Below are positions 600-20,000 of a stretch of 20,000 bases of DNA, in pieces; the first letter of the stretch is position 1, and each line of letters starts with the position of its first letter. A program made the translations under genes and the position numbers. The DNA comes from Psammoneis japonica (lineage: Eukaryota), in NCBI GenBank assembly GCA_008632985.1, contig QPGO01000275.1:57555-77554 (forward strand). The letters run 5' to 3'. Under the pieces are notes generated by a model, which was not told the DNA's origin, searched no databases, and saw only the letters and a program-made list of their open reading frames with translations.

Positions 600-3500
600 C
601 ATGTCAAAATTGATTTAGCCACAGGGAGAAATTGAAGAAGATGTTGTCTCGAACAGCTGCAGGCACACATTTCTCCAGAACATGTCAGAGGCAAATCGAC
701 CTTGCTCAGTTCTGCTCATTCCATCAAAAGGGGGCACCAGGTGAATCCCTTGAGCATGTGTTGTTGTGCCCACCCCTTGATGTTGAAAGGACGGTTTTGA
801 CTTTTCTGCAGCAACAGGTGTCGGCAGCAAGTGCTGTTGGACACGAAGAATTGGCCTGGTGATGAGAGCAAATTCAAGACGCGCTGCTGTCAATGTCAGA
901 GAATGTAAGAGAACAAACAAATGATTCAAAGGTTGGTGAGATTGTCGAAAACTGGGACAAGGAGAAAGCAGCGAATTCATTTCAACTGAGCAGAGGTGGG
1001 CTTGCCGCCGCAACATTTGGGTGTTGTTCTTGTTTGTTCTTGTCGCCCTCTCGGTCTGAATGCAACATAAAACAATTGGAGCAACAGATGTTTGCATTTG
1101 TCTTCACCCACTTTGTCACAATGCTCAACGTTGCAAATGACATTGCCACTCTGAAGAGACACGAGAGCGAGCGGCATGAGAGTGAGGTTGACGACGAGCT
1201 AACTTCCCCGGGACTTTCCCACTCTGGTCAGCTTAAACTCACCTCCAATGTTCAGTGAAAATGGCAAGAGCATTCCCAATTGACTTTGTGTTGCCATCGA
1301 CAAGTGTTTCTTGAAACAGTTGTCGTCAGTTCCGGCCGACGTCTTTGACATTGCGATGGGAGCGGCGACGGTTGCGAGTTTTATTTTTCTGAAATTTGAG
1401 GTTTGTCTTCTGTGATCATGTTGTGGACAAACAAATGTTGTGCGAACACCACCATCGCTGGCACGATGTTGTGCCCATGAGTGGTGAAGACCCAGCACAA
1501 AACCCCCGTAGAAAAATCGTGCACGCCTTGTTCGGTCTGGTCGGATCTTTGCACGGGAGCGATTCGTACACCAGAAGCATGCCAGCGGGGGGATGGACAG
1601 GCAGGCACAATCAGGGGGGCACCAGAGGTGCACAAATCGTCTTGTCGTCTGTGCGTGTGCTTCCTTGCGCACAATCAATGCGCGAATGCGTGAATGACAA
1701 AACGATGAGGTGGCTCACGGATGCAGGTGGGCTACGAAAGTGTCTGTGATGACGTGCTGCACGTGAGAGAATTTTCATGGGGCAAAGTTCCAAATTTTTG
1801 CAAATTCGCCGCGACGCAACGCGTGCCAAATGACAAGTTTGGGTCCACATTCTGCCATGCCCGACAACACAATCACTTTTGCTGACATCAGACACTCCGT
1901 GCAATGTTCCAAGGTCACAGTTGCTGGCACATGATCCAAGCCAATGCAATTGGATCGAATGCAAAAAGCACTTTGCCGACATTGCCAAGTGCTGCATTGA
2001 CGCACAAATGCCGCATCCGTTGTTGGGTTGTTGTTGCGTTCCAGATGGGACGAAGAAATCTGCTGTTGCATTGAGAGCATCATTTGTTCATCTGATTGGG
2101 GAGGGTTCAAAGGAAAAGGTGAAATGGTCATTGCAAGGCATCATTTTTACCTCACATTGATGGAGAGGATGGGAACAAGGCAGTCCATGCGCCTCAGTGC
2201 GGATGATGGAGGGCATGTCCAGTTAGAGCCTTTGCCTGGTGCTGGAGGGGCATTTGGCAACATTGCTGCGCCCATGGATGCAGACACTGCCCACAGAATG
2301 GGCATTGTGCATGATTCTGAATGCACTTTCCTCCGGTTTGAGGCTTGAGACTTTGTTTCGCGTCAACGATGGAGAATGTAGAAAAGGTGGATCGTAAGTG
2401 CCACAGAGCGAACGCACCGACGGATTGCATGGCAATGTTCTGGACCGCCTCTCACCATTTTGCCACTTGTTTGTAGACACTTGGGTTGTCACTGCCTCAG
2501 GAGCTGCATCAAGTTTGACAGAGCCGGCAAGTCACGGACAAAACAGCACAAAAAATAGAGAAGTGGACAGGGCTGCTTGCAAAGCGCAACTGTCCTCACT
2601 GTTGAGGCTGGCTTTCAAGAAAGATTTCACGGGACACAAGGGAGTGCTGGAAGCAGTTCGTTTGTGTTGTTCTGGATTGGGAATTGAGAATTTTGGCTTG
2701 GCAGTGCAGCTCTGCTCTAGTCTAAACTAACATCTGCATGCCTTCTCCACAAACTCCCGCACAGCATGAGTTTCTTCACTGGCAAGGACGTGGTCTTCAG
2801 GCTCATCATGTTGGAGCATCATCCACATGCCCTCAACACAGTCACAGGCTTTTCCCTGATCATGCTTTGCATCAATGTTTCCCAGGTGCAAAGAAGATGA
2901 AGAGCCTGCAAGGAGCCCCACTCCGGATCACACGAACAGCACGAGAAACCAATGATGAAATGAGTCAACTTGACAAAGGAGCCATTGGATCTCGCAGAGT
3001 GCTTTGAAAGAACCGGCAGCGCAAACTAAGAAAACGTTGTTCGAAAGCGAGCCAGTGACGTTCTGTTATTTTATCGGGATGTCATTCCCAAACCGCAGCC
3101 GGAAACCTTAACCACAACAACACAAGCATCTTTTTGCTGCACTCCAGTCCACACCCAAATCATAAGTCAGCCACCGGTGCCATCCTCATGTTGCCCGGGA
3201 ACAGGCGCAGGTGAAAAATTGACGTCCGTTGCTGGCGCACAATGTCGATTCCAGAGAACGTGTGCAACAGTGAGTGCGATGAAACAATCAAGAGCCTTTT
3301 CGTCTTCATTGTCCAAAAAACATTTGTTGCACGTGCGTCGCGAGTCGTTGATGATTTCCGGGAGGAACACACCAGCAGGTGTGCATCAAAAGCCATGGAT
3401 GTTGCATTGCGGGAGGGATTGAAGGCAGTGGCGAAACGGGCGAACAAAAAAGAGGATGTCAGCAAAGGAGAGTGACAACAACAATGCACCTTTTCAATCT
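600..3500. other. TpA-depleted degenerate, probably TE-derived coding remnants; family not identifiable
   Basis: Very few TA dinucleotides (none in 3165-3700). Many short Cys/His-rich ORFs in all frames. 3242-3475(+) reads like a protein C-terminus, but I recognise no domain. Confidence 0.4.
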
Positions 3501-3639
3501 TGCCTTGCTGTTCATTGCTGTGCATTGTCAAGAAGTGACAAACAGCTGTCCCATCTCATCCGCAAAAAGGATGGAAAACCACGGACACTGACACCACCGC
3601 GCACGCACACACGACAGTCCATCCAGCTTCAACTGGAGC

Positions 3640-4360
3640 AGGTCCATTGACAATGCCTGTGGCAATGCACAAGAAATGAACAACACAGTCTGTGAGAATT
3701 TATCTTCTGCATGCTGTCAAAACCGGCAGGGCTCGCCCACCATTTTGCTTCGCTCAAACAACAGATGCAACCAAGCCACTTCAGAACAGATCAACTGACA
3801 GATGCTTCCTGTGGCAATGGCACAAGAGAAACAGACAACAGAGTCCGTGAGTGTGTGTCTTCAACATGCAGCTGTCCAAGCCATGAACTGTAAAAAGCAG
3901 AGAATGCGAGCTCACAAGATGGGCGCACCGTTTTTTGAATCACCAGAACAACCGATGCAACCCAAGCAATTCGGATTGAATGAACCAACAGATGCTTCCT
4001 GTGGCAATGGCACAATGAACAGATGACAGAGCCCGTGAGAGTGCAATGGTTCTTTGACATGTGGCCATCCAAGCCATGAACCGCAAAAAGCAGAGAGTGC
4101 GAGCACGTGAGAACTGAGTGCCGTTTTGCTTCGCCCAAACAACAATTGAAACCAACCCAATTCAGACCCATCAACTGACAGATGCTTCCTGTGGCAATGG
4201 CGCAACAAACAGAAAATGGAGTCCGTGAGAGTGCTGCTTTGATTTGGCCAAACCACAAACTGCAACAACAGGAAAAAACAAGCTTGTGAGAACTGCGCAC
4301 CGTTTTGCATCACCCAAACAAGTCATGCAACCAAACCCACTCGGATTCGATCAACCCACA
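3640..4360 (+). repeat. Degenerate ~190-bp tandem repeat (3 clear copies plus a partial upstream copy)
   Basis: Core GATGCTTCCTGTGGCAATGGC starts at 3801, 3991 and 4181 (period 190). Related CCTGTGGCAATG at ~3656. Shared CCGTGAG, CCAAGCCATGAA and CCGTTTT blocks in successive units. Confidence 0.9.
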
Positions 4361-4922
4361 GTTGTGACACTGCCGGACCCCTTTGACATGTTGTAACTTG
4401 GGAGATGTTTGGTGCCGGGAACACACAATTGCCGGGCAAAATTCATCCTGAGAGAAGCCAAGAGGTCGTAAGTCTAAATTGCACATTTTCTCCACAACCA
4501 ACAGCCCTGCTGCACTTTGCTTGCCATCACAAATGAAGCAGATGTTGTAGATGGAGAAGGAAGCAGTGAGTCGAGGTGTCACAGCTCTGCTTTCGAAAGA
4601 GAGCTGTGTGATGTGTTGATGATGCGTCGTGTTGTTGTGTGCAGATTTTGGCGATCGAACCGCTTCTCGCCCCATAAAAATTCTCTCAGGTACGGCACGT
4701 CGTCACAGCCGGAAGTACCGTCGTGATCCACCTCATCGTTTTGTCGTTCGTGCGCGCGCTGAGTGTGCGAATGCGCGTGTGCGAACGACAACAGACGATT
4801 TATGAACCTCTGGGGGGCACTGTGAACACCATCCAGGCTAACACACTGCCAAACTCAAACACAGACAAAAAAACTCCCTCCGACACAACTCAAATCTGCA
4901 ACACACAATGATGTGCGCCGTC

Positions 4923-5355
4923 GGTGTCCCACTTTACGGCGTGATATCTCAATGACTCTTTCACCGATTTTCCCGTTTCTTGTTTCCTTCTTAACGATAA
5001 CATCACGATGAATTCCAAAAGCTTGGTCCCATTCTGTGTCAATCAGAATTATGGATTTCTGTTTTGTCCAAAGCCAGGTCAGTGAAATTTGGTTCGAGTG
5101 AGGTGTCCCACTTTACGGCGTGATATCTCAAAGAAGCTTTAACCCATTTTCCCGTTTCTTGTTTCCTTCTTAACGATAACATCACGATGCATCCCACAAG
5201 CTTGGTCCCATTCTGTGTCAATGAGAATTATGGATTTCTGTTTTGTCCAACGCCAGGTCAGTGAAATTTGGTGCGAGTGAGGTGTCCCACTTTGCGGGGT
5301 GATGTCTCAATGATACTTTCACCGATTTCCCCGTTTCTTGTTTCATTCTTAATGA
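4923..5355 (+). repeat. 179-bp tandem repeat, ~2.4 copies, downstream of the Crypton ORF
   Basis: GGTGTCCCACTTT starts at 4923, 5102 and 5281. Copies 1 and 2 are highly similar along their full length. Confidence 0.95.
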
Positions 5356-5609
5356 GAATTGTCCAATTGACTTCAAGACGTTGGGCTCGTTACACAGTGT
5401 TGAGCTTTAAGCACAGAAATATTTGCCCAAAATTTGCCACCAAAGAATGTCCTCACTAAAATTTTAAATTTTAGAAGCGCGCACGAAGGAGACCGGTGCG
5501 TCTAATTGGCTACGAATAAAATGAAACGGTGAGTTCTGTCTACAGCTGGCTGTACGTTGCACACCATGTGCATGTGTTGTGTAATGCATGCATGTACTAC
5601 TAACCAATT

Positions 5610-8600
5610 TTAATTATCTACCAAGACGTGCAGATTTAGTTCTCGAAGCGCCTGGTCGCTTGGATCAATCCAGTTCTTTCGGAGGCTATGCTCTATGTGT
5701 GCTCTGCCACGTCTGCCCCAATGCTCGGCACCTGGTCCATTGAACTCAGCCCTTACCCAAGCCATTTTTGTCAGAGACTCAGGTTTTTTATAGTTCTTGT
5801 CAAACACACCAGCAATCATCCGTGATCGGAGGTACAGTGCTGCCAGGCAACACGTGAAAATCCCGCAGTCTTGGGATCTACTGTATTGAGCAGGCATCTT
5901 CTGACAATGATGGAAAACACTGTGCTCCTTCCAAAGAGAAGATGTCTTCAGATATTCCGAAACCCTCTCTGCTATTGCCTTTGAGCCACTTGGGTAGGAA
6001 TCGAAATAAATGAAAATCCCGTCATCCCACAACGTCCGGTCCACTACCAGAAGAGAGAAGTGGCCGTACGAAGCATCACCGGTAAAAATAGGCGCAAAAA
6101 TAAGGTTGTCATTTTCAAAATCAATTTGGTGTCCTCCTCTGTTTGAGTACGCTTTCCATGATCCACTGGAGAAAAAGGAGTCATCCGCAGCTTTTACGCC
6201 CTGATCAAAATGAGGCCGCACCAAAGTATTGAGATAACCTCGCACCACTGAACCTTTAATCATTTGACCTTGCCGCCGGAGCTCCGACATAAAAGCACAA
6301 GATATCACAGCATCTCCAACATTTGGAAGGGCTGGATTCTGCCCTGGTGTCGTGAGGTCGTCACTCTCGCCCAAAATGGAGTCAGCCATTGCGCCGCACC
6401 CAACTTGCTCGGCTGAAACGTCATCAGATGTTTTCAGGGGCTTCTTGTTTGGGACGCCTTTGTTTCCAATAGAATCGTGCGCAAATTCTGCTTTGCGTTT
6501 CCGAGAGGCAGAGGCGGCACGATTGTATTCTGGGTGTGATTTGTTGTTTATGGTAGCCAGTGGCAGCTGCGCCTTGTCGGAGTCCGTGCCATCCTTTTCA
6601 ATGGCAGACCGCATGATTCGCTTTGCCCAACTCGATATTTTCCAAGTCTCGGGTTTGCTGCCTTTAAGCTGCCACATGTATGAGGCCCGCAATCGAAGGT
6701 GGTCCGTCCCTTCATTGTACAGTCTCAAAGCAACTGACGAGTCGATGACTTCAGGAATTTCTGAAGACAGTCCCGCCTCCATCATCAAAAATAGCGGCTT
6801 CCATTGCGTCTTGTGCTGATCCTGCAGCTTCTTGGAAGGCAGCATTTTTGGTGATAACAAACGAAAAGGCCGAACTGGACATGACACAATGTGACCTTTG
6901 CGGTCTGTCATCTGATTTGCCGGTTGGCCAGACATCCACAGGCACCATCCAGTGCTTCTGTTCACCTTTTTCGGAAATTCCCAGCCTTCGGGAACGTGCC
7001 AAGCGGCCTGCAGTTTCCCGGGAATTCTGCACATGCACTGCTGATGCCCGCCCTTGCTCTTTCCATCCTCCAACTCTGGTGGTGAAACACTGGCATCTTT
7101 TCTCTCCGCAACCGCTGCAGCACCAAGGCGCTCGTCCATCACACTTCTCACTGCAAGAATGAGCTCTTCCTTTGCACCACCGAGCTTGTTTGCAAGCAAA
7201 TCCATGGTCATCTGGCCGCTCCGCACATCGTTGCTTTCCATGGCCGAATGCACAGCAGACTCAACAACGCCAACCATTTCATTCACTTTCTGCAGTGTTT
7301 GTGCCGTGGTCGTCAGCAGCTCTTGAAGAAGCTTGCACTGCTGCACATGTGGCGGCATCCCAGTGGGCTGAAGCGTTGTCGGATGCTTCCCCTTGGTGCC
7401 ACCGCTGAGGTGTTGCTGCAGTCTCATTGTCAAGTCAGCCCGTTGAAGCAGTGGCAATGAGTCAAATGGATGTGACACGTCTCGGGTGGCGTGCAATTTA
7501 ATGAAATCGATGTTGTGCGCCAACAATGCTAGAAGGAACGACAAAATAGACTGGATGCCCCAGATTGTTCCCATCGATCCAAAGCACAATGCAGTGGCCT
7601 CGTCGCATGCTTCCCTGAAATCTTTTTCCTCAACACTCGTAAAATGAGGCGGCAGCACAGAAAAATCAGCCGAGTTGGGATCCAAACCTGCAGTGCATCG
7701 GCCAAGACATTGATCCCCAGGCTCAGCAAAAAGGAAGCACACATCAAATACAGTTCCCTGGGACCACTCACCTCTGCGAGCAATGGATGGCAGTGGCAGG
7801 GGATTTGTTGTTCCAGAAGCAGCAAAAAGCGCGGCACCCTTCCGAGTTCCATGCGCACCAGTGCGATCGGGCCGGGCAAACTTGCAAACGGCACCCCGGA
7901 ACGACTTCAAAAGCTCCACAAGCTGCTCACAGCATCTGCTGGCTGCAGCTCCTGTTTTTCCAGCAAACAGAAAAAGCTTCTCACGCAGTTCAAACTGTGT
8001 TTTGTTCAATGAAATCCAAACGGCAAGAGCCGTGAACACACAAATGTGTGGCTCCAGAGGATTCGTGCACAGATTCTTCGGTGACACTTTTTCACCCACT
8101 TGATCGGCCTTGGATTTATCACAAGTGACTTTGATTGAGTCGCTGCCAACTGTGAAGTTGTGGAAGCCCAACGGATCAATTGAAATTGATCTTCCCATGC
8201 AGCTCCATTGAAGCAAGCCAAAAACCCACAGAAAAATGTTGCCCGTGTCGAGCGCACACTGGCAGATCAATCGGAGCAAGGGAAAGGGAATGGGGTCCGA
8301 CTCGGAAGTGTCCATTTCACCCGATTGCAACAAACCTGTTGCCTCCTTCCTGCAAGCTGGGAGGAAGTCTGAACCGACTTTAATGTGATGATCCTCCGGA
8401 AGCGCCTGCTCTGCGGATCTGGCACCATGCAGAATCGCATTGTGAAATTTTGTCATGCTGCTGCATGAGCGAAACGTGCCGGCCCGTTTTTTTTTTTTGG
8501 TGGATTGCTTTTTTGGTTCTTTAAGCTGCTTCATGTCTGCAAAGCACGCAAGAATTACATCCACGTTCATGCCATCATGCACAAGGTCTTCCGTGTTTGT

Positions 8601-8897
8601 GTGAAAGAACTTGGTTGGGTCAGCCAAATCATTTTCCGATGCTTTCACAATTCCACCCTCTTCGGCGCACTGTGGATGCTTTTCCTTGATCCAGGCCATG
8701 ATGGTTTTGAGCTTGTTGTGATGCGACTTCACCGTTTCCTCAGTGACTTGTTTGTTTTTGGTTTTGGCGACACCAATCTTGTGCTCAGTTTGTGTCTCGA
8801 TGGACGCTCCGATCATTGGCTTGGCTGTGGCGCTGCCAGAATTCCCATGTCGTGCATCCTTCCCTCGCCTCATCGACGGGCACTGTTTTTTCCCCAT
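5610..8897 (-). CDS. Crypton-type tyrosine recombinase fused to a C-terminal C48 (Ulp1/SUMO) peptidase; frame open but predicted catalytic Tyr replaced by Cys
   Basis: Numbering follows the 1115-aa ORF translation. YR motifs: CMGR256S, AH369GTR372KGAA, RRGEW398SQGTVFDVC407...GDQCLGR. A VPEGWEFP...W.LW..G...VRPF module follows. C48 motifs: GH966FSLLVVD, YFD986S, Q.SRSQDC1031G. Probable start is the ATG at 8897. Confidence 0.85.
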   Translation of the reverse strand: MGKKQCPSMRRGKDARHGNSGSATAKPMIGASIETQTEHKIGVAKTKNKQVTEETVKSHHNKLKTIMAWIKEKHPQCAEEGGIVKASENDLADPTKFFHTNTEDLVHDGMNVDVILACFADMKQLKEPKKQSTKKKKRAGTFRSCSSMTKFHNAILHGARSAEQALPEDHHIKVGSDFLPACRKEATGLLQSGEMDTSESDPIPFPLLRLICQCALDTGNIFLWVFGLLQWSCMGRSISIDPLGFHNFTVGSDSIKVTCDKSKADQVGEKVSPKNLCTNPLEPHICVFTALAVWISLNKTQFELREKLFLFAGKTGAAASRCCEQLVELLKSFRGAVCKFARPDRTGAHGTRKGAALFAASGTTNPLPLPSIARRGEWSQGTVFDVCFLFAEPGDQCLGRCTAGLDPNSADFSVLPPHFTSVEEKDFREACDEATALCFGSMGTIWGIQSILSFLLALLAHNIDFIKLHATRDVSHPFDSLPLLQRADLTMRLQQHLSGGTKGKHPTTLQPTGMPPHVQQCKLLQELLTTTAQTLQKVNEMVGVVESAVHSAMESNDVRSGQMTMDLLANKLGGAKEELILAVRSVMDERLGAAAVAERKDASVSPPELEDGKSKGGHQQCMCRIPGKLQAAWHVPEGWEFPKKVNRSTGWCLWMSGQPANQMTDRKGHIVSCPVRPFRLLSPKMLPSKKLQDQHKTQWKPLFLMMEAGLSSEIPEVIDSSVALRLYNEGTDHLRLRASYMWQLKGSKPETWKISSWAKRIMRSAIEKDGTDSDKAQLPLATINNKSHPEYNRAASASRKRKAEFAHDSIGNKGVPNKKPLKTSDDVSAEQVGCGAMADSILGESDDLTTPGQNPALPNVGDAVISCAFMSELRRQGQMIKGSVVRGYLNTLVRPHFDQGVKAADDSFFSSGSWKAYSNRGGHQIDFENDNLIFAPIFTGDASYGHFSLLVVDRTLWDDGIFIYFDSYPSGSKAIAERVSEYLKTSSLWKEHSVFHHCQKMPAQYSRSQDCGIFTCCLAALYLRSRMIAGVFDKNYKKPESLTKMAWVRAEFNGPGAEHWGRRGRAHIEHSLRKNWIDPSDQALRELNLHVLVDN

Positions 8898-9522
8898 GGT
8901 CGCAATGCAAAGCCAAACAGCTTTTGCAGGGACGCAAGACCCAAACACAGACACCACACGTGAGATCCCCGTGCTTTGTCGTGTTAAAACGAAAAGGATC
9001 CAGGGCCGATGTGAGGTTGGTGTGCTTTTCCAAAAGGATTTGTCGTTTCAAATTTTCTCACACATGTTGTGCACATTTCCACTAAAAAGGATTTCTCACC
9101 CTTTTGGATTTAGAGACGAGATTTGGTGTGCTCTGACGCAATGATGACGATTTGCGAGAAATTTGGCATGCTTTCCTGGGAGATCTCGAAAATCCTCCCA
9201 AAATGGCCGATTGCTTGAGCGACTGTTCATTGACAACTGTGCATGTGTCTGCGAGGTCGCCGCAACTCCCTCCCATGTCTCATGCATTAAAACCCTTACG
9301 AGTGTTGTGTGTTGTCAACCATTTGTCTCCACCCACACTCTGGCACCCAAAGTGCATTTCGCCGACACAAGCAGGTGGGTCTGTCATTGGGTGTCTCGTC
9401 AATGACAGTTTCTGCTGTTGCTTCTGCTGACTCGCTGCCTCCTCTCATTTTCCCATTACATTGCTTGGCCCATGTGCATGCCTTGCAGGAGGATTGGGTG
9501 TGCAAGAATTGGCTTTGTTGTC

Positions 9523-12074
9523 ATGGAGCGATCGAAAAGCATCAGTCCCATTGTTGCATCAAGTCGTGATTCATCAAGTGACGAGCCTCGAGTCACTTGG
9601 AATGACAGGTGTCTCTGCAATTGGGAAGAGTGCAACAAATGTCGAAAACATTTTACATCAATCAAGCATGCACTTGGGGGTGACTTTGTGAGGCTAACTT
9701 ACAATGAAGATTCTTGCAACGCAGTCAATCTTCTTGAGGCTGTCTTCCTCAACCTTCACGTGTCAAAGAGCGACTGAGACATGATCAAACAGTGTCACTC
9801 CGACAGGAAAAAAGGTGGTGAATGTGGCAGAATGTCCCCTGCCGGTGATGCCAGGCGTGTTCGACCACAGGTGGCAAGACATCACTGGAAAAAAGAGATG
9901 CACGAGATGCTTGACCATGCCAACGAAAACTGGTCCACACCCATTGCCCCCTGATGTTGCAGCAAAGTGGAGTTGCTTTCATGGTGATTACAAGAGCAAC
10001 AAAAGAATGAGATGCAACCCTGATCTAGGTGAACCCAGGCCTTTGCAGTGACGAATCGAAAATCCCATCATGCACGTGAATGCCCCGAATGTTGACAAGA
10101 GCACGGTTGGGTCGTTGCGCGACTTGCTGACGTCCACTTGACCTGATGCACCGAGGAAGATTCATCAAAATCAACATGTCTCTCCACATGAAGAAGAGTT
10201 GCAGCATGTGGTTCATGACAGGGATGGAAAGTTAGCTGCTGAAAGGCATGAAGCTTGGTGTCGACAGGATGAGATTGACGGGTTCAAGAGAAAGAACAAG
10301 GCGTTGACGGAGAAGAATGCTCGTTTGTCAAAAAAGCAAAAGTCGTCAGCTGAAAGCTCTCAAGATCTACAGTGTAAAGACCACCACTTGGCCTGGGACC
10401 AAGTTGAGGATTTTCCAGCTGACTCTGGAGGGTTGTCTCGTCTTGCTGTTTTCGACGATGAGTGGCATTCGAACCATCCAAATGCGGCGTCTTTGTTGCA
10501 TGGTTTTGTTTCATGGGAGGAAATGAAGCAGCATGTTCAAGATCTTTTTCCTGAGATCAATGCTGATGCTGCGCCTTGCCCTGTGGCTCCAACCAAAGTT
10601 GGTGGAGCCGTTGATGTGCCCCCGATTTGAGAGCCAGAGAAATGCTTGATTTGTCGACCATTTTTTCACCATCAGGAGGTTGAAGGTGTGATGGGCCTTG
10701 TGATGAACCGACATCGCGTTCGAGTGGGGCAAATGCTTCATGAGTGGGCTCCAAGATGGGGAGAGGCTGGAGAAGATTTGTCAATTCTTGACATCACCTG
10801 GGGGGACTTCATCAAACGAGAACATCCAGACTTGGATGCAGGCAGTGCACGAGTTGGGCCATCGATTCTCGTTGATGGTCAAGACACGAACACAGAGTCC
10901 AAGCAAAAGGATGGAACCACCAACAGGATGCAATGCAGCTCAAAAAATGATTGCAACTGTGGGCACTGCTTAACGTGGTCTACACTGTGCGGCACTGCAT
11001 TTGAGCACACTCCGCTGTTTGGAGCCAGAGCGTCAGAGAAGAGCACACTGTGACTGTGGGGATTGCTTGGCATTGCATGCGCACCTGTGTCTGAGTGGGA
11101 AGATGCTGCCAACAAAGATGATGACCCAGAAGGAGCTCCAAATTTCTGCACGGCCCTTGACGACATCACAACAGCATCGGAATTTGAGGAGATGATTGAC
11201 CAAAATCTGCTTGGTGGTGAAGATGCGGTTCATGATGACGTGCTAGTCACAGCCACAACATCGGGACTTGAGGAAGTGGTGGGCGACAACAAGCCCCCCC
11301 GTGGAGGATGCACTGGAGGAGGAAACTGAATCTGGCTTGATGTCAGAAGCTCTCAATTGGTGGAGAGAACACAAGCTGCTCAAACGAGCAGAGAAGGTGA
11401 CAGGGGGGCAAAAGAAACAACCCACAACAACACCGGAGCACTTGGAGGAGCAAAATGACAAAGTCCTCCATGGAGGGGTGAACAACAGTGGAAAAAGAAA
11501 ATTGATCCAGCTTGAACGACAAGAGCGGCTTCATCGATCATGTGAAGCTTGCACGTTGAGAAAGTGTTTGCTTTCATGCTGTCTTTTAGTGACTGCGAAT
11601 GAGCGACAAAAGCTTTTGGCGTGGCTTGGCAGCAGCATGGACGGTCTGCCGCAAAAGCCGAAATTGGAAAATGCCCCAAAGATCCCGCTGCGACTGGCTA
11701 AGATTTCAAATGGTGTTTCTGTAATCGGTGACAAGGGGTTTGCCGGAACAGAGCGAGACCATCCCTACTTCAACGACGTCAACACTCCAGAAAAGCTCAG
11801 TGAGTCGAAAGGCTACAGGAAAACTGCGCAACACATTTCTCGAGACCGTCCATTGTTCAATGCAAGGTTTCCAGCAGAGACGGTATTTAGTCGATACACT
11901 GATGAGGACATCGTAAAAGCTGTCGTCCCTTGTTATGTGGTGCCGATTTTACCATGTGCTCATGCATGGGCCCACGCAGCTGCAAATCTTGATTTGCCAT
12001 TCCGGAAGCCAGGCGCAGAGTCTATCGTCACCGACAGCTACTGGCAAAACAAGAAAAACTACGGCAGACGTTAA
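9523..12074 (+). pseudogene. PIF/Harbinger/ISL2EU-like DDE transposase (DDE_Tnp_4-like), disrupted
   Basis: Fragments in order: Cys-rich N-terminus (RCLCNWEEC), HTH-like segment (GQMLHEWAPRW), ILVDG...CSSK...G...HTPLFGARASE, VIGDKGF, R..AETVFSRY. In-frame TGA stops end at 9777, 10051, 10630 and 11053, and there are frameshifts (e.g. ~11290). Start position tentative. Confidence 0.75.
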
Positions 12075-12253
12075 GGTGCAATAGTTCGATACGTGGTCTA
12101 CTTCCGGCATGCGCCAAGGTGCAATAGTTTGTAAAAGCGATCTGCTGCGGCAGACGATAAGGTGCAATAGTTCGTTACTTGGTCTACGCCTTATTCATTT
12201 TCGCTACCCAATAGTTCGTTACTTGGTCTACGCCTTATTTATTTTCGCTACCT
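12062..12253 (+). repeat. Four 43-44-bp imperfect tandem units between the convergent stop codons
   Basis: CAATAGTT at 12079, 12122, 12165 and 12209. AAGGTGCAATAGTT at 12073, 12116 and 12159. Units 3 and 4 are nearly identical. Confidence 0.9.
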
Positions 12254-13002
12254 TTTTAGTAACGTCGTCGCCTCGTCGCCTTTTCTGGCCCATTGCTCTC
12301 TTGAAGCTGTCCTTCACAACAAGATTCTCAATCAGCATTGGAACAGCTTGGACTAGCTCAGGCGACACGGGATAACACAACTCAAACTCATCTTGAGACT
12401 GCTCTAACTGCACCAAACCAATCAAATATAGGAGTCCCAACAGGTGTGAACAGAAGAGACTGCCGTCCTCACAGCTGCAGGTAGAAAAAGGAGCAAGAAT
12501 AAAGTCGCCATTTGGTTCATCCTTAAAGACAGCACTTGTCGAGTGGACGATACCTCGTTCCGAGCTGAGCGTGTCGTACCTCAGCATGACGTTCTTGCGC
12601 GCTTTCATAGCGTCCTCAAACTCGGTGTCCGACACAAATCCAGTAGCCTTGTAATCTTGAACGGCTTCATCGTATATTTGTTTGTGTTTCTCTCGGTCAT
12701 GAAGACGTTTGTCTTTTTCTTCTTTCTTAACTGGCGGGGCGACACCATCAAAAACGTACACGGGTGTAATGCCAGCTTTTTCTAATAGCCCATGTATCCG
12801 CTGATTTTCTGCAAGTATTTCAGGAGAGGGGTAGCACGGGTTACAAGTGGTGGCGAGCTGAGTCTCTTCTCTGCTGTTGCATTTGTTCAGAAGAATAGAA
12901 ACATCAACACCAATGCGCTTTCCCTTGAACTTGTCAGCTCGTTCATGTGGCTTATTCTGAAAAAGCCCGAGGGCAGGGCCCCAAAAATTGTTTCGGCCCC
13001 AT
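12228..13002 (-). pseudogene. XPG/FEN1/Exo1-family nuclease N-domain joined to a SWIM-type zinc finger; likely second ORF of the DDE element; 5' frameshift and apparent internal deletion
   Basis: KGKRIGVDVSILL and GITPVYVFDGVAPPVKKEEKDKR are XPG_N motifs. CSCEDGSLFCSH fits CxC-xn-CxH. The ATG GGG at 13002 (MG start typical of the family) is out of frame with the ORF by one base. No XPG_I EA(D/E) motif is present. Confidence 0.75.
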
Positions 13003-13349
13003 GTGTTGTTATGCGGCAAACGGGACAGAAATTCGGGTCACCTTTCCGACAAAAACGAGAGCGCTAGCTCTGAAGTGGTAATTTAACCACTACCCAGTGC
13101 CATGAATAAACCGCAATTTGAGTACACACTGAGGAGGCACAATCATAGGAGGCCACGAGTTAGCAGCGGCGACCATAGAAATTGTTTTTGATGCAAAACC
13201 CAAGAATCGACCTACCTTTGTTGGTTCTCGAAATGCACTTTTGATTCAGAACTTTGGAGGAGATGGTTAGCCAGCAATGGAGGGTACTTTCACTATTTTT
13301 GAAAGGACGAATTGCAAGAAAGAAAAGAGAGGAGTCGGAAGAGTGACAA

Positions 13350-14341
13350 ATGTTTCTCCGACGGCTGCCGTGTCATGGAGCGAGTGATTCTGTGCGATTT
13401 TTGCAACTCAACCCAGACCGAACATCGCGCACGAAATCGCACGTAGGGGGTTTCAGGGCTCATAGATTCCTCCCGGATTTTGTACGCCGCCGAGTGAAGC
13501 GAAGCACAACAGCCTATTCCAACAGTTCAGCCGCCCACCATTCAACAACCGCAGCAACCCATTCTCATTCAACAACCTCAGCCTCTATTCTTACTGTTCA
13601 AGACCGCCCACTCGTTCCTCCTATATACAATGGCGTCAATCCCAACTATCCCGGCGTCACCATGGTGCACGGATCGCCTCCCATTTTTTCGGTCGAGAAT
13701 TTTTTGACACCGCACGAGTGTGATTTTTCGGTCGAGAATTTTTTGACACCGCACGAGTGTGATTTTCTCATTGCGGCCGCATCCGATTCCTTTACCCCCG
13801 CACCCGTGGTGGGCAAGGGCAGTGGCGAAATCTCGCCGTCGCGAACCTCCTCGACTTGTTATTTAGCACGCGAGGATGTTCCAGACTTGATGCGCAAAGT
13901 GACAGTGCTCACGGGCAAACCCGTGCACACGTGCGAATTGCCCCAAGTGGGACGGTACGAACCGACGCAACAATATTTACAACACTTTGACGCGTTTGAT
14001 GTTTCCACGGAAGATGGATTGCGGTTTGCCACCAATGGTGGACAACGGACCGTGACCGTGACCGTGCTGATTTATCTCAATGATGTTGCCAACGGAGGTG
14101 ATACACGATTTCCCTTGTTGGATCTCTCAATGTACAGCCTCGCAAGTGCATGGCTCTTGTCTTTTTCCCAGCCACCATTGATGGGCTCTTGGAAAAAATG
14201 GCCTTGCATGCGGCACTACCGGCGGTCGATACCAAGTTTGTTAGTCAAGTGTGGATTCGACAAGCCGAATACAAGGGACAACCCTCCAAGCGACTGGACA
14301 CCATAATGGGGGTGCCGTTTGGACAAGAGGTGATGAATTAG
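13350..14341 (+). pseudogene. Prolyl 4-hydroxylase-like 2OG-Fe(II) oxygenase, frameshifted
   Basis: Motifs PPIFSVENFLTPHECD, SRTSST, ELPQVGRY, HFD, GGQR.VTVLIYLNDV..GG.T.FP, then in another frame ALVFFP...LHAALP...KFVSQVWIR. Frameshift at ~14125 (extra TC). True 5' end uncertain; recognisable similarity starts at ~13600. Confidence 0.85.
13686..13763 (+). repeat. Perfect 39-bp tandem duplication inside the P4H-like gene
   Basis: TTTTCGGTCGAGAATTTTTTGACACCGCACGAGTGTGAT occurs twice, giving FSVENFLTPHECD twice. Confidence 0.95.
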
Positions 14342-14591
14342 AACGTGAAGAAGAGAGAAGCCAGTGTCATGTGGTTTTGGTGTTTAGAAAATGCTCCGTC
14401 GGCTACAGTTTTGGAGCTCTCGTTCATTCTGGACGAGATTAGTGTATAGTTTTTAGAGCTTTCGATCGCGGTTTCAACAGACTTTCAAGTGCTGAATTTC
14501 TGGAGAAAGACGCAACTTCGAGCAAGTAGCAAAATATCTCATAACTGTAACAACAAGTTTGATTAGTAAAGTTCGCATGCATTATCCTCCA

Positions 14592-17500
14592 TCACATGTC
14601 CATCCACGCTTGCGGAAACAAATGGTCTGGTATGCCAATTTCGTATCGAAACGCGGATTGTACAAACATATCGGACGTGTATTCGTCATCCATAAACTCA
14701 ATGGTTCGCCGCGGAACGTCCGTTACGATCCAATCGTCATTAGGGGTGCGATGCACACGAACCACGTACACATCTTGCGGTGGAACAGTGGTGTCCGCTA
14801 GATACGGATCGCCCTCATGACGATGCAGCACTTGACAACGGTAGGCATCTTGCGTTCCAGTGCTGTACAAATGCGGAGAGTATTCCCACTTGCACTCATT
14901 GTCGTGTTTGCCCGTCCGAGTTTGCTTTTCGTCCAAATTGCCCACATAACAAATGGTTTGAAAGTTTTCGGGATATGGACCCGCTTCTTGTTCCTCGAGT
15001 GTCTTGACTGGAACGTAAAAGTCATTGTGCTCGGCCGCCGAAACGTACTCATCATCATCATTGGGTCGCCCGTTTTGCAAATGCGTATTCCACGCATCCT
15101 CCGATTGCTGGCCATAATCCAAAAACACTTCTTCACCCTCTTGAATGTCACGGGTGGCAACCACTTCCATAATGACACCCGCGCGGTTTTCGCTCATGAG
15201 CTCCTCTACCGGTCGATCCAGCCAATCGGCCTGATTGGGCAGCTTGGATTACCGGCGTAATTCGGCATTGAATTCCGGGTGATGATGATTCAAGTAATTT
15301 TGTCACGGGCGAGTATGGAAAGAGCAACAAGTTTGACTTGGGGTGGCCATAACAATAATTGAGCAAGAGCTGTTGGCCCGTGTAATACGGTTCCACATTC
15401 TTGTCGTCCATGTCGTCGCTGTCGTACACTTGCATGTGTCGACGATGCAATTGAACAAAGGGCAACGGAGCAATGATGCTACCCTGTGCAAACGAGTCGC
15501 AAAGGCTCCCTTTCCAGCCTGTGGGAGCGTGGACGTGTCGGGGCGGATATTGTCAAGACAGACACCATTCTCCTCGAGCCATTCGGGTGAAGGCACCGCG
15601 TTTGGTACCGAGTGGAGGGCCGTGCCCTTCTTTACCACCTCTTGTACGTGAGACAACTCCCTGGGCAACGCCAAGCGGACGCGATTGCCATCATTCTTCG
15701 AATCCGTCTCATTGTACCAGAGCAATGACCACAAGTCATTGGCAAATTCCGTGTTGGGATTGTGATCAATGAGATCCCAAAATTTACGCAAAACCTTGTC
15801 GGCGTTTCTGAAATCATAACTCAAGGGAATCACACCCAACTTTTCGGCTCGGTCCTTAAACCACGTGTCTCCGTATTGCACAAAGAGTTCCATTCCAGCC
15901 TGAATGTGATTCTCCGCCGTGTACCTTCCTCCATGATAGGTTATGGAAGCACCCGTTCCAGGATCCTTGCTTCGCTCCATACCCATGGTGTCTACATGGG
16001 GTGGACGCATAAAGGCACTGACCAAGCCCGTGTGGCTATTGGCAAGCATGCCCAGGCCCGGCACTATGGATTGTACGTCATCTGCCTCGAATTCTCCACC
16101 CGTCGTATCGGGATCCCAGTAATAGCTATGCATCAACCAATCGGGTTCCGTGTTTCTACCAATAAACTGTTTTTTGTCTTTCCGTCGACGCAATTTTTGG
16201 TTGAATTCGATATCTTTCACTTGCACCACTACGTCGGAATGGAAAATGTCGCTCTTCTCTGGAATTTCCACAGCCGTGTACATTCCCATGCCTGCGTTGG
16301 GAATGGACGATTCCGCCACATACAATTGACACGACAAAGCTTCTTTTTCTTGTTTGCTTTTTTGTTCCAAATCACGCCACGACGGGGGAATCATGTCATC
16401 GGGTAATTCCAAGTAATGACGAAAGGCATTTCGTAAATACGAATCATTGGTATAGGGCAAATCGACAATGACAAGTGCCTGACGAGGTATACCATGAACG
16501 ACCTTTTCCGTCCACTCGTCATTGTCTTCCTCTTGCTTGTAACGAATGCGTGATGTATAGGTATTGTGCTTAGCATTGCGTTCCAACACGGTACACTCGT
16601 CCGTTTCATCCGTGTGACGATAATAGACCATGTCGGATTCTAACTCGTCCTCTATGACCCAAGTGTATTCTCCATTGGTGTCGTCTGTTGGATCCTCCAA
16701 TTCATCAAACCAACAACGTGTTTCGACATTTGCGGGATATGCCGGCTGCTCGTCTTGAATGGTTCGAATGTGACGTTCCTGGTTAAAGACAGCTGCCGGT
16801 ATGTAGTCTTGCGGTGATGAGCGTGGTGCCTTGAATTATTCCTGGACATGCTTGTCCCAAGATTCTTGCCAATCGTTACCATAATCCACCAGAATCTCGT
16901 CTCCCTTGGAAATATCCCCCGTGGCGACAAATTCCATCATGAGTCCTGTTTTCTTGTTGTTTTCTAAAACTTGTGTGCTGGTCCAATTCAACCATTCCGG
17001 ATGAGATTGACGAGAGGACCAACGAAGTTTGACATTGGCCGTCTTGTTGTCGCTACTTCCGTGATTGATTGTGTTTGTGGCGGGTGCATAGGGATAAAAC
17101 ACCAACGATGTAGACGGATGGCCATAGACATAATTGTACAAGAGTTGATGACCACGATGGTAAACCTTTTCTTCATCATGTTCATCAACGACCCACAAAT
17201 CCAAATGACTACGATGCAAATGAATCAAGGGTGCTGGCGTCACGACGGTGCCCTTCTGTAAATCACGAGACGCAAAGGCACCCTTGCCGGCACCGTCAAT
17301 GGTAGATTCCTTGACAGTCATGTGATCCAGACACAATCCATTTTCTTGCAACCACGCTTGGGATCGAATGACATTGGGTACCGTAAGCATGGCGGTACTA
17401 CCCTTGAGGTGAAACCAAACATGATGTGCGTCTTGATAGGTTTTGGGCAATGCCCATTTGATGCGTGGACTGACATCGTCCCGCTCCTCAATCTCCTCAC

Positions 17501-18118
17501 GCCATGCATCCCAATGTCCTTGTCGTGATCCACCCACAAAATAATCACGCAACCACTTGTCGGCAATTTCAAAGTCACCACTGAGTGGCAAATCGTTTCC
17601 AAAAATTCCATTTCGTTCTTAAAACCATCCATCACCGTACATGGCAAAGAGTTCCATACCCGCCGGTATATTTTGATTGGCTTGAAATGTCAATTCCGTA
17701 TTGTACGTAAATGCTCCCGCTTGTGGAGGATGATGACGACTGCGATTTTTGTTGGCAGCAATTTGATGGAGTGGACCACGATTCAATGCATTCACCAAGC
17801 CGGTGTGACTGTTGGCCAGCATGCCCAATCCAGCAATAATGGTATCAATATTTTCCGCTTCAAAACTTGCACCCTGCCAACGTGAAAACCAATAATACTC
17901 GTGCATGAGCCAACTTGGAATGTCATTGGAAAAAAGAAGTTTGCGGATATGCTCGTGTTTGGCACAATCGGCAACATTAATCACAACGTCCACATGCCCC
18001 AACCCGAATGGGGAATGGAGGACTCTGCCAAGTATAAACCGCATTCAAGTTAATGTGCAGCCGATGACAAGCAAACAAGTGATACAGTGATGCACCGTAG
18101 TAGTAACAACAAGAACAT
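14592..18118 (-). pseudogene. Diatom-type signal-peptide-bearing protein with four SET-like domains (two tandem di-SET units), disrupted
   Basis: Hydrophobic N-terminus MFLLLLLRCITVSLVCLSSA. Each motif occurs twice: C.LY.AESSIP..G.GM, GLGMLANSHTGL, AGMELF..YG, ENG.CLD....ST...AGKGAFA.R, NY.YGHP, ME.VAT.DI..G.E...DYG. In-frame TAA at 18050, 17619, 16836 and 15249. Frameshifts or deletions at ~17990, ~15490 and ~15298. Confidence 0.85.
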
Positions 18119-18343
18119 TTTGGTGCAATTCTTTGTTGCGGCCAGATCTTTGCGAAAATCCGCGATGCCCAAAAGAACGTTGAGTGGATTCAAATAGGGT
18201 TTCGAATACTTGTTTTTATTTTTTATTGAAAATATAAGCCAGATTTCAACCCCCGCCCCCCCCCCCAGCCAGGGAGGATTAGGAATGGCGCTACGATCGA
18301 GAGCCAATCAGAATTTAGCATTTGGGATTTCTACTTAGGGAAG

Positions 18344-18370
18344 GTCCTCGGAAAGTCGAGGACTTTCCGA
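18344..18370. other. Overlapping inverted repeats upstream of a TE-like ORF
   Basis: TCGGAAAGTC (18348-18357) pairs with GACTTTCCGA (18361-18370). GTCCTCG (18344-18350) pairs with CGAGGAC (18357-18363). A CCAAT-like AGCCAATCAGA lies at 18302. Confidence 0.6.
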
Positions 18371-18463
18371 CCAATTAATAAACATTTTTTCGGAAAATCT
18401 GACGCAATCACTTAGGGACGAGGAGGCTGAGACAACCCTCCAAAAGCAGACACAAGAATCAGA

Positions 18464-19500
18464 ATGATGCGGAGACCGACAATCATCTCCTTTCGCGCCA
18501 CGGAAAATCACAACAACACAGACTTCTCGCGCGATGAGAAAAATTCTCTCACAAAAAAAAACACGAGAGAGAAAAGTACAATCTCTGCTGGTGCTTCGAT
18601 GATGACGGACGAAACGGAAAAATCTGCTCCAACAAAAGTGGCTGCAGAGCGGCAGCCACATCCTTTCTTTAGTGACATGGGAGCTCAGCCCCAGAAACGC
18701 AAAGGCTCCATCAAAACGAGCAAAAGCCAAGCGTGCACACGCCAGAAGCGCACTCATCAGAGCGATTTAAGTGGGCGCAAGGTGCCAAGAGTAGACGACG
18801 GAATGAAGAAATGCAAGAGGTGCAAGAATGGGCCTGCATGTCATCATGGTCACGATCCCACATGCAAGCATTCGACACGATGCACGCAAGTCAACGTCGC
18901 CACGGCTGCGAAAGACGCAGAGCGACGTGACAAAGAGCTTCACGGAACAAACAACATGATCCCGGCTGCTCCAGAAAAGGGAGCATCAACCACACGAGAC
19001 CATTTTGGAGTGCAGAAACCTGCAGCTCGAGTCATGTTGCCTTCTCCAGGTGTTTCCAATGTTTGCAAGCCGGTAAATTCGGGTGTGGCTGATGCTGCAG
19101 GCCCCGTGCAGTGCACCAAGAACACCCACAAGTCGGCCACTGATGCAAAATTTTTGGTTGAGACTTTGAAAGGAGAGACTCGAGCAAGAGCAAAAAAACA
19201 TGAGAACTCAGAGGAGAGGATGAAGTGCCCAGCTGCAGTGAGTGCTCTTGTCAGTCATCTGTTGGATTCTGTCAAGCCGAGATTCGAACAAGGCAGCAAC
19301 AAGTGTCCTGTTGCCACAGCAAAAAGCACCAAGCTCAATGAGATTCTGGAGGTCAAGGATGGTGCATTTCCTCCTGGCACAATGTCTTTTCAAGTTCCCA
19401 AGGATGACTGCACTTCGCCGCCCTGATTGTTGCTGCCATCAGCTGCAAGGCACGACAACACACATCGTTTGTTGGGAGCTGAGCTGTCCTGACATCTGAC
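18464..19500 (+). pseudogene. N-terminal part of a probable TE-encoded protein with a Cys/His zinc-finger-like motif, TpA-depleted and frameshifted
   Basis: 320-aa ORF with zero Tyr and the motif CKRC....CHHGHDPTC. It appears to continue after a frameshift at ~19420 as PDCCCHQLQGTTTHIVCWELSCP. Family not securely recognised. Confidence 0.5.
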
Positions 19501-20000
19501 GCATTCCAGCCCTGGGTGGGAGCTTGCAGTGCCGACGTGTGACACAATTTATTTTCATCATCCATTGCATGTTTCGCATGTGCATTTCTGCGTGTGACAT
19601 TCCAAAAAAATTGTCCAGACTCGCTGTTTTTGCGAAGCCCCAGACGTTTTATGTGACGAATTCATCGGAACTTTAATGCGCCAGTTACGTTCTTCAATGT
19701 CTGAAGAATGTAACTGTCCAAGTAAAAAATGATGTGCTTCAAGCATGGACGAGTTTGTGCGTTCACAAAATTGCCTCATTTTCTGTTGGCGATCATTGAC
19801 ATTTTCATTGCCTGACAATTTTACTGCGGAGCTCGCACGTAGAATTCCAAGGGCCCAATGTTACACGGATTCCCACCTGCGTCTGGAACGCATCATCTGT
19901 CTCTCCTGCATTGGCGGAGAGTGCAACGGGGAAATGATTCATGACCGTGTGGACTTTGCTCGACATTGTGGGGCAACACCAATGTGTTGTGTCAGCGGGA

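Follow-up and report, generated by a model that had tools for sequence, protein, structure and literature searches.

Tyrosine loss in a Crypton-like recombinase gene lying across the edge of a TpA-poor block in Psammoneis japonica

Gene structure and protein family

The locus described here lies in a window of 20,000 nucleotides (nt) of Psammoneis japonica (assembly GCA_008632985.1, contig QPGO01000275.1, positions 57,555 to 77,554 of the forward strand); "window" designates this whole stretch, and positions are counted from its first letter. The central feature is an open reading frame (ORF) of 1115 codons on the minus strand (5610-8957, protein P0001), whose likely true start is Met21 (ATG at 8895-8897, minus strand) and whose product joins a Crypton-like tyrosine recombinase to a C-terminal Ulp1/C48 protease through a conserved middle region. 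Its first 746 residues are devoid of tyrosine, and most of the DNA that encodes them is nearly free of TpA dinucleotides.

The recombinase part was modelled with AlphaFold2, using a 75-sequence alignment. The model of residues 60-480 (7518-8780, minus strand) displays the two-domain tyrosine-recombinase fold, core-binding and catalytic, with a predicted local distance difference test (pLDDT) of 93.4 and a predicted template modelling score (pTM) of 0.91, and its top matches in Foldseek were Cre chains (probability 1.00, TMt 0.62-0.71). Superposition on Cre with VIA-align gave Z 18.6 and a root-mean-square deviation of 3.3 Å over 273 aligned residues, with model positions 3-343 on Cre 28-319; one row of this alignment pairs model positions 4-347 with Cre 29-323, and places C407 (model position 348) at Cre 324, which we take to be the nucleophile. 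The spacings between the catalytic residues match those of Cre R173/K201/H289/R292/W315. Further structural matches were obtained with Flp (Z 16.7), XerH (Z 14.7), lambda integrase (Z 13.4) and Ndc10 (Z 10-12), and also included Xer recombinases and the integron and Tn1549 integrases. At E <= 0.01, Pfam recognised the recombinase domain (Phage_integrase) neither in P0001 nor in the 22 family members examined, and a profile search of PDB sequences returned low-complexity noise and nothing relevant to the recombinase, so that membership in the superfamily rests on fold and motifs. As judged from the model, residues 60-480 belong to the tyrosine recombinase superfamily (Cre/lambda Int/Flp fold).

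The Ulp1/C48 peptidase domain (residues 946-1044; 5826-6122, minus strand) was detected as PF02902 (E 2.1e-6, 28.2 bits for a cut-off of 20.7). It contains the motifs GHFSLL, YFDS and QDCG, common to the relatives P0002 and P0003, which we take to carry the His/Asp/Cys triad of the peptidase. This domain is encoded in DNA of normal TpA content and has retained its tyrosines.

A word search gave 21 relatives of nearly the same length, at 31-53% identity. All of them conserve the middle region (residues 480-760), and the fused layout of recombinase and Ulp1 domain is also present in P0002 (1093 amino acids, aa) and P0003 (1108 aa). An exhaustive HMMER search over representatives gave 2619 proteins at E <= 1e-3, including 166 at E <= 1e-30. 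A language-model look-up, considered as a lead only, placed the domain beside clusters of oomycete "core-binding domain" proteins (scores 0.95-0.96), with further neighbours among clusters annotated with Phage_integrase, ALOG or NDC10_II.

Tyrosine distribution and catalytic residues

An earlier examination of the letters and their translations (hereafter the sequence-only reading) had described a recombinase with no Tyr before residue 747 and with 12 Tyr in the last ~370 aa. Retranslation of 5610-8957 gave the same picture, with none in residues 1-746 and 12 in the final 369 residues (747, 760, 811, 908, 937, 964, 984, 988, 1002, 1025, 1042 and 1056). The codons named in that reading were also right, namely TGC at 7737-7739 for residue 407, TGT for residue 417 and TAC at 6717-6719 for residue 747. 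This last codon (minus strand), the first Tyr codon of the ORF, lies 142 bp inside an island of normal TpA content. In composition, the Tyr-free part contains 3.5% Cys and 3.5% His, and the remainder of the ORF 3.3% Tyr, 1.6% Cys and 3.5% His; medians over 167 family proteins (query included) are 3.0% Tyr, 2.0% Cys and 3.1% His. The probability of finding no Tyr in 746 residues is ~1e-9 at a Tyr content of 2.7%, and ~1e-11 at 3.3%.

Five catalytic residues are retained, all encoded on the minus strand: R256 (8190-8192), K283 (8109-8111), H369 (7851-7853), R372 (7842-7844) and W398 (7764-7766). In an alignment with 74 homologues, K283, R372 and W398 are invariant (74/74 each), R256 is found in 73/74 and H369 in 62/74, the other 12 having Tyr at this column; all five, including the four that had been reported as intact (R256, H369, R372 and W398), are present and 84-100% conserved. 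The nucleophile column is occupied by codon 407 (TGC, Cys; 7737-7739, minus strand), one TpA->TpG step from TAC. All 74 homologues have Tyr at this column and none has Cys, and the structural register, which gives Cre 324, agrees with the proposal that the nucleophile position now reads Cys. The Cys of codon 417 (TGT; 7707-7709, minus strand) had been read as replacing the Tyr of a GDQ[Y] motif; column 417 is Tyr in 59 of the 74 homologues, with Phe (9), Leu (3) and Thr (1) among the other residues listed. The homologues hence display the opposite of a shared Cys at 407 and 417, a state that the sequence-only reading had named as evidence against its own proposal.

The same replacement was found at every well conserved Tyr column upstream of residue 747. 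In a 22-sequence alignment, the columns of residues 1-746 with at least 70% Tyr are 94, 97, 127, 190, 279, 297, 342, 407, 417 and 643; at all ten, the query has Cys (7) or His (3), and all of these codons are TGY or CAY. At the Tyr columns 747 and 760, past this part, the query still has Tyr. When the 75-sequence alignment was used with a threshold of at least 50% Tyr, ten columns were obtained, and the query has Cys at 6, His at 2, Phe at 1 and Leu at 1. The nearest relative at the DNA level (L040, 64% identity on the best segment) has 11 aligned Tyr, which correspond here to Cys (6), His (4) and Phe (1). From its sequence, the copy descends from the recombinase family and, the nucleophilic Tyr being missing, it is almost surely dead and could not be an active member.

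TpA-poor blocks and dinucleotide composition

The ratio of observed to expected TpA (o/e) is 0.31 for the whole window and is strongly bimodal among segments. The ORF lies across the edge between a TA-normal island (4401-6860, 74 TpA, o/e 0.43), which contains its last third and its 3' flank, and a TpA-poor block (block 2, 6861-11580), which covers codons 1 to ~699 and 2.6 kb upstream of the ORF. Block 2 contains 26 TpA in 4720 bp (o/e 0.09; TG 1.60, CA 1.49, CG 0.62), for 166 expected at the TA-normal rate (Poisson P(<=26) = 1e-41); its part inside the ORF (6861-8957) contains 9, for ~74 predicted from the TpA rate of the TA-normal segments. Two other blocks have the same composition, block 1 (620-4400; o/e 0.10, TG 1.66, CA 1.59), which is multi-copy by read depth, and block 3 (18421-19550; o/e 0.08), and a second TA-normal segment extends from 11581 to 18420 (o/e 0.55). 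The edges are sharp: TpA levels step five- to seven-fold within a few tens of bases at 6855-6900, 11580 and 18420. At the edge inside the ORF, TpA dinucleotides are spaced by ~43 bp as far as 6855, after which none occurs before 7499. P0002 and P0003 align with the product without interruption at residue 700, and no rearrangement accompanies the block edge.

The depletion affects all codon phases. TpA counts by phase are 0/3/6 in 1473 nt of the query versus 16/24/28 in 1440 nt of L003, and those of the C-terminal part are ordinary (6/6/4 versus 9/7/12 in L032). Since TpA is depleted in every phase and beyond the ORF, selection on the protein cannot explain it, and the data support the loss of tyrosine as an effect at the DNA level, of TpA->TpG/CpA type, and not as the result of protein selection.

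No strand bias of the hypermutation was found, with TG/CA counts of 477/434 in block 2, and 367/399 and 88/122 in the other blocks. TG and CA being raised about equally, both strands were hit. The sequence-only reading had proposed A->G at TpA: the conversion of TpA to TpG/CpA is supported, and the choice of A over T as the attacked base cannot be made because TpA is its own complement. These counts also bear on a possible editing at the RNA level, in which a double-stranded transcript would have undergone ADAR-like A-to-I conversion before being reverse transcribed into the genome. The neighbour preference of ADAR (Discussion of 10.64898/2026.01.13.699255) is compatible with A->G at an A preceded by T/U, but TG and CA are close to equal and a single coding strand shows Tyr->Cys as well as Tyr->His; moreover, Cryptons are DNA transposons, no reverse transcriptase was found by Pfam in the ORFs of the blocks, and block 2 extends regardless of ORF limits. 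We regard this origin as extremely improbable.

Some TpA contexts survive better than others. The surviving TpA of the blocks are in ATAN context in 5 of 56 cases, versus 98 of 327 in the normal parts; no ATAT, GTAT or CTAT is left in the blocks, and the survivors are mostly TTAN or NTAA. These residual contexts suggest a preference of the process for certain flanking bases. CpG o/e is also lower in the blocks (0.62-0.71 versus 0.85-1.03 outside), a depletion compatible with cytosine methylation of the same silent blocks. Self-comparison of the window revealed no large duplicate that would explain a repeat-induced process.

Open frames in TpA-poor DNA

Under the genetic code, conversion of TpA to TpG or CpA changes TAY to TGY/CAY, NTA to NTG/NCA, and NNT|ANN to NNT|GNN or NNC|ANN, and changes the stops TAA to TGA/CAA and TAG to TGG/CAG. 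It thus turns no sense codon into a stop and erodes two of the three stop codons, so that a frame under this process remains open, and an open frame in TpA-poor DNA is no sign of selection. In agreement with this property, which had been put forward from the sequence, TAA+TAG codons, counted in the six frames together, have a density of 5.3-8.5 per kb inside TpA-poor blocks versus 29-31 per kb outside, and TGA density is unchanged or slightly raised in the blocks. Among open frames of at least 100 codons wholly within TpA-poor blocks, 18 of 28 have no Tyr. The further proposal that such a gene would look intact and yet be inactivated through the loss of Tyr is supported by the Cys at the nucleophile column.

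Share of the divergence and reversion of TpA-type changes

The contribution of TpA-type changes to the divergence of the query was evaluated at conserved columns. In residues 1-700, the query departs from the consensus at 69 of 257 such columns (26.8%, among the highest values of the family, whose members range over 12-28%), and 14 of these 69 departures (~20%) are one TpA step from the consensus (7 Y>C, 3 Y>H, 3 I>M and 1 T>A). For residues 701-1115, the corresponding numbers are 46 conserved columns and 14 departures, with 1 TpA-type change. The loss of Tyr through a TpA process, as proposed in the sequence-only reading, is supported, but most of the departures from conserved columns are of other types.

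A back-mutation check, which had been suggested along with this proposal, was performed by reverting single sites in the first 2100 nt and scoring the products with a hidden Markov model (HMM) of the family built without the query, a reversion being counted when the gain exceeded 2 bits. Transitions of the same direction in other sequence contexts were used as controls. TpA-type reversions were enriched among the score gains, with 18 of 221 non-synonymous reversions raising the HMM score, whereas 8 of the 433 controls did so (odds ratio 4.7, Fisher p 2e-4). Apart from this specific layer of TpA damage, the gene is thus rather well preserved.

A well preserved gene without a nucleophile could also be a domesticated, catalytically inactive protein derived from a recombinase and kept by selection, on the model of the Crypton-derived DUF3504 genes, which lack the catalytic Tyr. 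Domesticated Crypton recombinases without this Tyr have been described (Kojima and Jurka 2011, PMC3212892), the frame is open over 1115 codons, R, K, H, R and W are kept, and the departures not due to TpA (55/257, 21%) are within the family range. However, all Tyr of residues 1-746 are gone and not the catalytic one alone, TpA is depleted in synonymous and between-codon phases and over 2.6 kb of non-coding flank, which is beyond the reach of protein selection, and the open frame carries no weight since the mutation type makes no stops. Domestication is thus considered very unlikely.

Related loci in metagenomes

The same signature was found in environmental relatives. Two family fragments from ENA assemblies, P0100 (257 aa) and P0132 (207 aa), are Tyr-free and have Cys, His or Trp at conserved Tyr columns; their contigs are 1-1.7 kb long. 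Across 77 metagenome loci that encode relatives, obtained with a search in which one pattern required a Tyr and which is therefore biased against hypermutated copies, the median TpA o/e is 0.65; four related loci are low in TpA, L069 (0.18), L034 (0.20), L068 (0.23) and L065 (0.36). In L034, the frame is open over 776 aligned residues, and of 21 Tyr of the sequence used as search query 10 are Cys/His and 1 is kept. L034 and L069 have Cys at the nucleophile column, and L068 and L065 have Tyr; the second motif Tyr is replaced by Cys in L034 and L065 and by His in L069, and is Tyr in L068. L068 and L069 share 95% DNA identity and differ by 28 substitutions, of which 10 are TA<->TG/CA and 8 are CG<->TG/CA. 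In L068, the gene fragment is TA-normal and the downstream sequence TA-poor. The four loci form one environmental subfamily, with copies at different stages of TpA loss.

This low-TpA subfamily is a distant branch of the family, at 31-39% identity to the query copy. Though the numbers are small, its sequences show the same TpA damage arising independently of that at the present locus, and hint that the process takes place in other environmental eukaryotes. No flank was shared between the other open frames of the window and the 77 metagenome loci, and the window contains no second copy of the element.

Sequence reads

In sequencing run X1, a contig of 4260 bases (word depth 33.5) covers 5323-9582 with 0 differences, and in read contigs this region appears to be single-copy at a likeness of at least 85%. 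The identity of X1 argues against a base-calling artefact. Such an artefact would consist of a modified base at TpA (hypermodified T or methylated A) that is systematically miscalled, the true DNA being TA. It would account for a change that is context-specific, nearly complete and arranged in blocks like a modification domain, and X1, of unrecorded library type, may have been the source of the assembly. On the other hand, contigs built from exact words are hard to obtain from error-prone reads and this one is identical over its 4260 bases; independent metagenome contigs carry the same signature; and de novo TpA mutations were recorded in Illumina-sequenced lines of Bigelowiella natans (10.64898/2026.01.13.699255). 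Taken together, these observations leave a miscalled base as a hardly credible explanation.

The same sample was sequenced in a further run, X2 (30 Mb of contigs), which covers almost only the TA-normal segments 4400-6880 and 12007-18000, together with repeat copies at 2002-3335. One of its contigs spans 5625-6879, and there is no X2 cover in 7338-12006; a fraction of 0.54 of the matching X2 contigs continue into sequence that differs from the window, a behaviour expected of spliced transcripts. X2 is also of unrecorded library type, and its cover was not used as evidence on expression. If X2 were RNA, the edge of the hypermutation would coincide with an edge of transcription.

Other features of the window

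The TA-normal segment to the right of block 2 contains host-like genes, with an XPG_N and SWIM zinc finger gene (12231-13037, minus strand), a 2OG-Fe(II) oxygenase gene (13347-14303, plus strand) and several fragments of SET-domain paralogues (14595-18044, minus strand), all TA-normal. A Pfam search of 50 other open frames detected no domain inside the TpA-poor blocks. The frame 7714-8100 (plus strand) was rejected as a gene: its translation has many matches among the 77 metagenome loci and corresponds to the antisense strand in nearly all relatives, as expected for a mirror of the conserved sense frame.

Blocks 1 and 3 have summed read depths that exceed the single-copy level several-fold to many-fold (150-1445, with as much as ~47,000 at 19344-20000), and they are probably old multi-copy repeats. 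A Tyr-free open frame of 331 codons in block 3 (18431-19423, plus strand; 11 Cys, 12 His, no family match) could represent a further hypermutated gene, or only a frame that persists because stop codons were lost. An open frame of 275 codons without Pfam match (11247-12071, plus strand) crosses the right edge of block 2 (~11580), and all of its 6 Tyr are in the TA-normal 3' part; a second block edge thus lies inside an open frame. Just downstream of the ORF, a tandem repeat (4923-5358) has a period of ~179 bp, 91% identity between units and a read depth of ~1445.

This arrangement is relevant to a regional compositional constraint, by which selection or a repair bias against TpA would act in certain chromatin with no targeted defence. 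TpA is low even in the normal parts of the window (o/e 0.43-0.55) and CpG is low in the blocks, as such a constraint would produce. But the five- to seven-fold step of TpA over a few tens of bases at the block edges is contrary to it, as is the content of the blocks, which hold a transposon gene or multi-copy DNA and leave the host-like XPG_N, 2OG-Fe(II) oxygenase and SET genes unaffected. A constraint of this kind is most improbable.

Interpretation

The gene at 5610-8957 is very probably a dead single copy of a Crypton-type gene (Cre-fold recombinase and Ulp1), the 5' two thirds of which lie in a TpA-hypermutated block. In the proposed mechanism, a chromosomal block would have undergone hypermutation at TpA, in which TpA->TpG on one strand equals TpA->CpA on the other. 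All Tyr codons (TAY) of the affected part would have become Cys (TGY) or His (CAY), the nucleophile among them. The nucleophile of tyrosine recombinases forms a 3'-phosphotyrosyl bond with DNA, and its loss would leave a recombinase that no longer cuts and rejoins DNA. With no new stops and with TAA/TAG destroyed, the frame would have stayed open and the gene would appear intact. The agent may be a targeted DNA-editing defence as in B. natans, possibly an adenine deaminase. The interpretation given in the sequence-only reading is supported overall, all of its testable parts having held with two corrections, which concern the attacked base and the share of TpA-type changes.

Several points weigh against this interpretation. 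X1 is possibly the source data of the window, with a library type that is not on record, and its agreement with the assembly is not independent proof. The ancestral state was inferred from relatives at no more than 64% identity, with no unmutated close paralogue, and, of the ten columns that are at least 50% Tyr when 75 sequences are aligned, two have Phe or Leu in the query and not Cys or His. Most of the divergence is ordinary, TpA-type changes being only 14 of the 69 departures in residues 1-700. CpG is low in the blocks, so that CpG decay may supply part of the TG/CA excess. Block 2 stops inside the ORF, and the process here would be equated with that of B. natans by signature only.

A wider reading, which we consider possible but rather doubtful, is that TpA hypermutation is a more general eukaryotic defence, acting in sharply bounded chromatin domains and guided by the silent or transcribed state. 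The recombinase half of the gene would then have been erased and the Ulp1 half would have escaped, perhaps being expressed, and L034, L069, P0100 and P0132, from microbial-mat and other metagenomes, would represent the same system in other protists. The block edge at ~6860 lies within ~25 bases of the end of a contig of X2, which is possibly RNA. If this reading were true, the defence could be traced across genomes by a simple marker, namely long ORFs without Tyr and rich in Cys/His.

At the protein level, TpA hypermutation removes Tyr (encoded by TAY only), thins out Ile encoded by ATA and never creates a new stop. Because no stops are introduced, hypermutated genes pass ORF-based annotation filters as intact though they are catalytically dead, and tyrosine recombinases are hit directly because their nucleophile is a Tyr. 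This calls for caution in the annotation of transposons and proviruses; Tyr-free, Cys/His-rich open frames in TpA-poor DNA also offer a cheap diagnostic for genomes and metagenomes. The sharply bounded, single-copy locus, with its 26 residual TpA, is usable for the study of targeting.

Comparison with known systems

As judged by sequence features, CryptonS appears to be the closest described element type to the ORF at 5610-8957, which can be called CryptonS-like. CryptonS elements were described in oomycetes and a diatom; their recombinase is followed by a conserved region, some of them also have a C48/Ulp1 peptidase, and they carry terminal direct repeats of 5-6 bp, often TATGG (Kojima and Jurka 2011, PMC3212892). 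The gene studied here shares the tyrosine recombinase, the conserved region after it and the C48/Ulp1 peptidase, the comparison being made with the published description and not with Repbase sequences. In contrast with that description, in which the peptidase is an additional protein, it is here fused in one ORF, and the present copy is single-copy and without Tyr in its recombinase part.

DUF3504 proteins and Ndc10/Cbf2 also keep a recombinase fold after loss of the nucleophile, and Ndc10 is among the fold matches of the model. Unlike the present gene, they lost specific catalytic residues under selection; here every Tyr of residues 1-746 was lost via a DNA process, and R/K/H/R/W were kept.

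Repeat-induced point mutation (RIP) of ascomycete fungi likewise silences mobile DNA by hypermutation, with transitions in a specific sequence context that are confined to sharply bounded blocks and recognisable by their dinucleotide signature. It differs in that it changes CpA to TpA, creating TA and many stops and lowering the GC content, whereas here TpA is destroyed, no stops arise and GC is raised. In addition, the copy studied here is single-copy at a likeness of at least 85%, and a dependence on repeats is not evident. APOBEC3 (C->U in DNA) and ADAR (A->I in RNA) resemble the process in being of deaminase type, with context-biased clusters of transitions that cripple invading genes. They act on single-stranded DNA or double-stranded RNA intermediates and are strand-asymmetric, unlike the present case, in which both strands of a resident chromosomal DNA transposon are affected.

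A literature search for the same signature elsewhere returned only a preprint on B. natans (Mettrop et al., bioRxiv 10.64898/2026.01.13.699255), apart from papers on RIP, APOBEC and ADAR. According to this preprint, 231 of 302 nuclear single-nucleotide mutations in mutation-accumulation lines fell in two integrated viral regions, at rates ~1000-fold over background, and 230 of these 231 were A->G or T->C, all on TpA. Its authors also report, in the B. natans genome, 124 clusters that are TpA-poor and rich in CpA+TpG, and 324 TpA-poor coding sequences (CDS) enriched in DDE endonuclease, reverse transcriptase and zinc finger domains, and they suggest an ADAT2-like adenine deaminase. Their cut-offs were TpA <=0.43 and CpA+TpG >=1.52; the blocks described here (TpA 0.08-0.10) pass the first, and their TG/CA values (1.41-1.66) lie around the second; blocks 1 and 2 also exceed 3 kb, the span taken to characterise blocks of the B. 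natans type. The depletion is far deeper here than in the active region of B. natans derived from a nucleocytoplasmic large DNA virus (NCLDV; Rho 0.45), and the target is different, being a Crypton-type tyrosine recombinase. In the main text of the preprint, the terms tyrosine, stop codon, Crypton, recombinase, integrase and Ulp1 have 0 occurrences.

The two cases are otherwise alike, with changes of TpA->TpG/CpA type only, kilobase blocks, CpA+TpG enrichment, and foreign or mobile DNA as the target beside normal host genes. The mutational process is thus already known from the 2026 preprint, and the present locus adds a corollary and a new target class, and no new principle. What is new here is the CryptonS-like recombinase-Ulp1 target, the consequence at the protein level, the boundary inside an ORF, and the occurrence of the signature in the environmental sequences L034, L069, P0100 and P0132.

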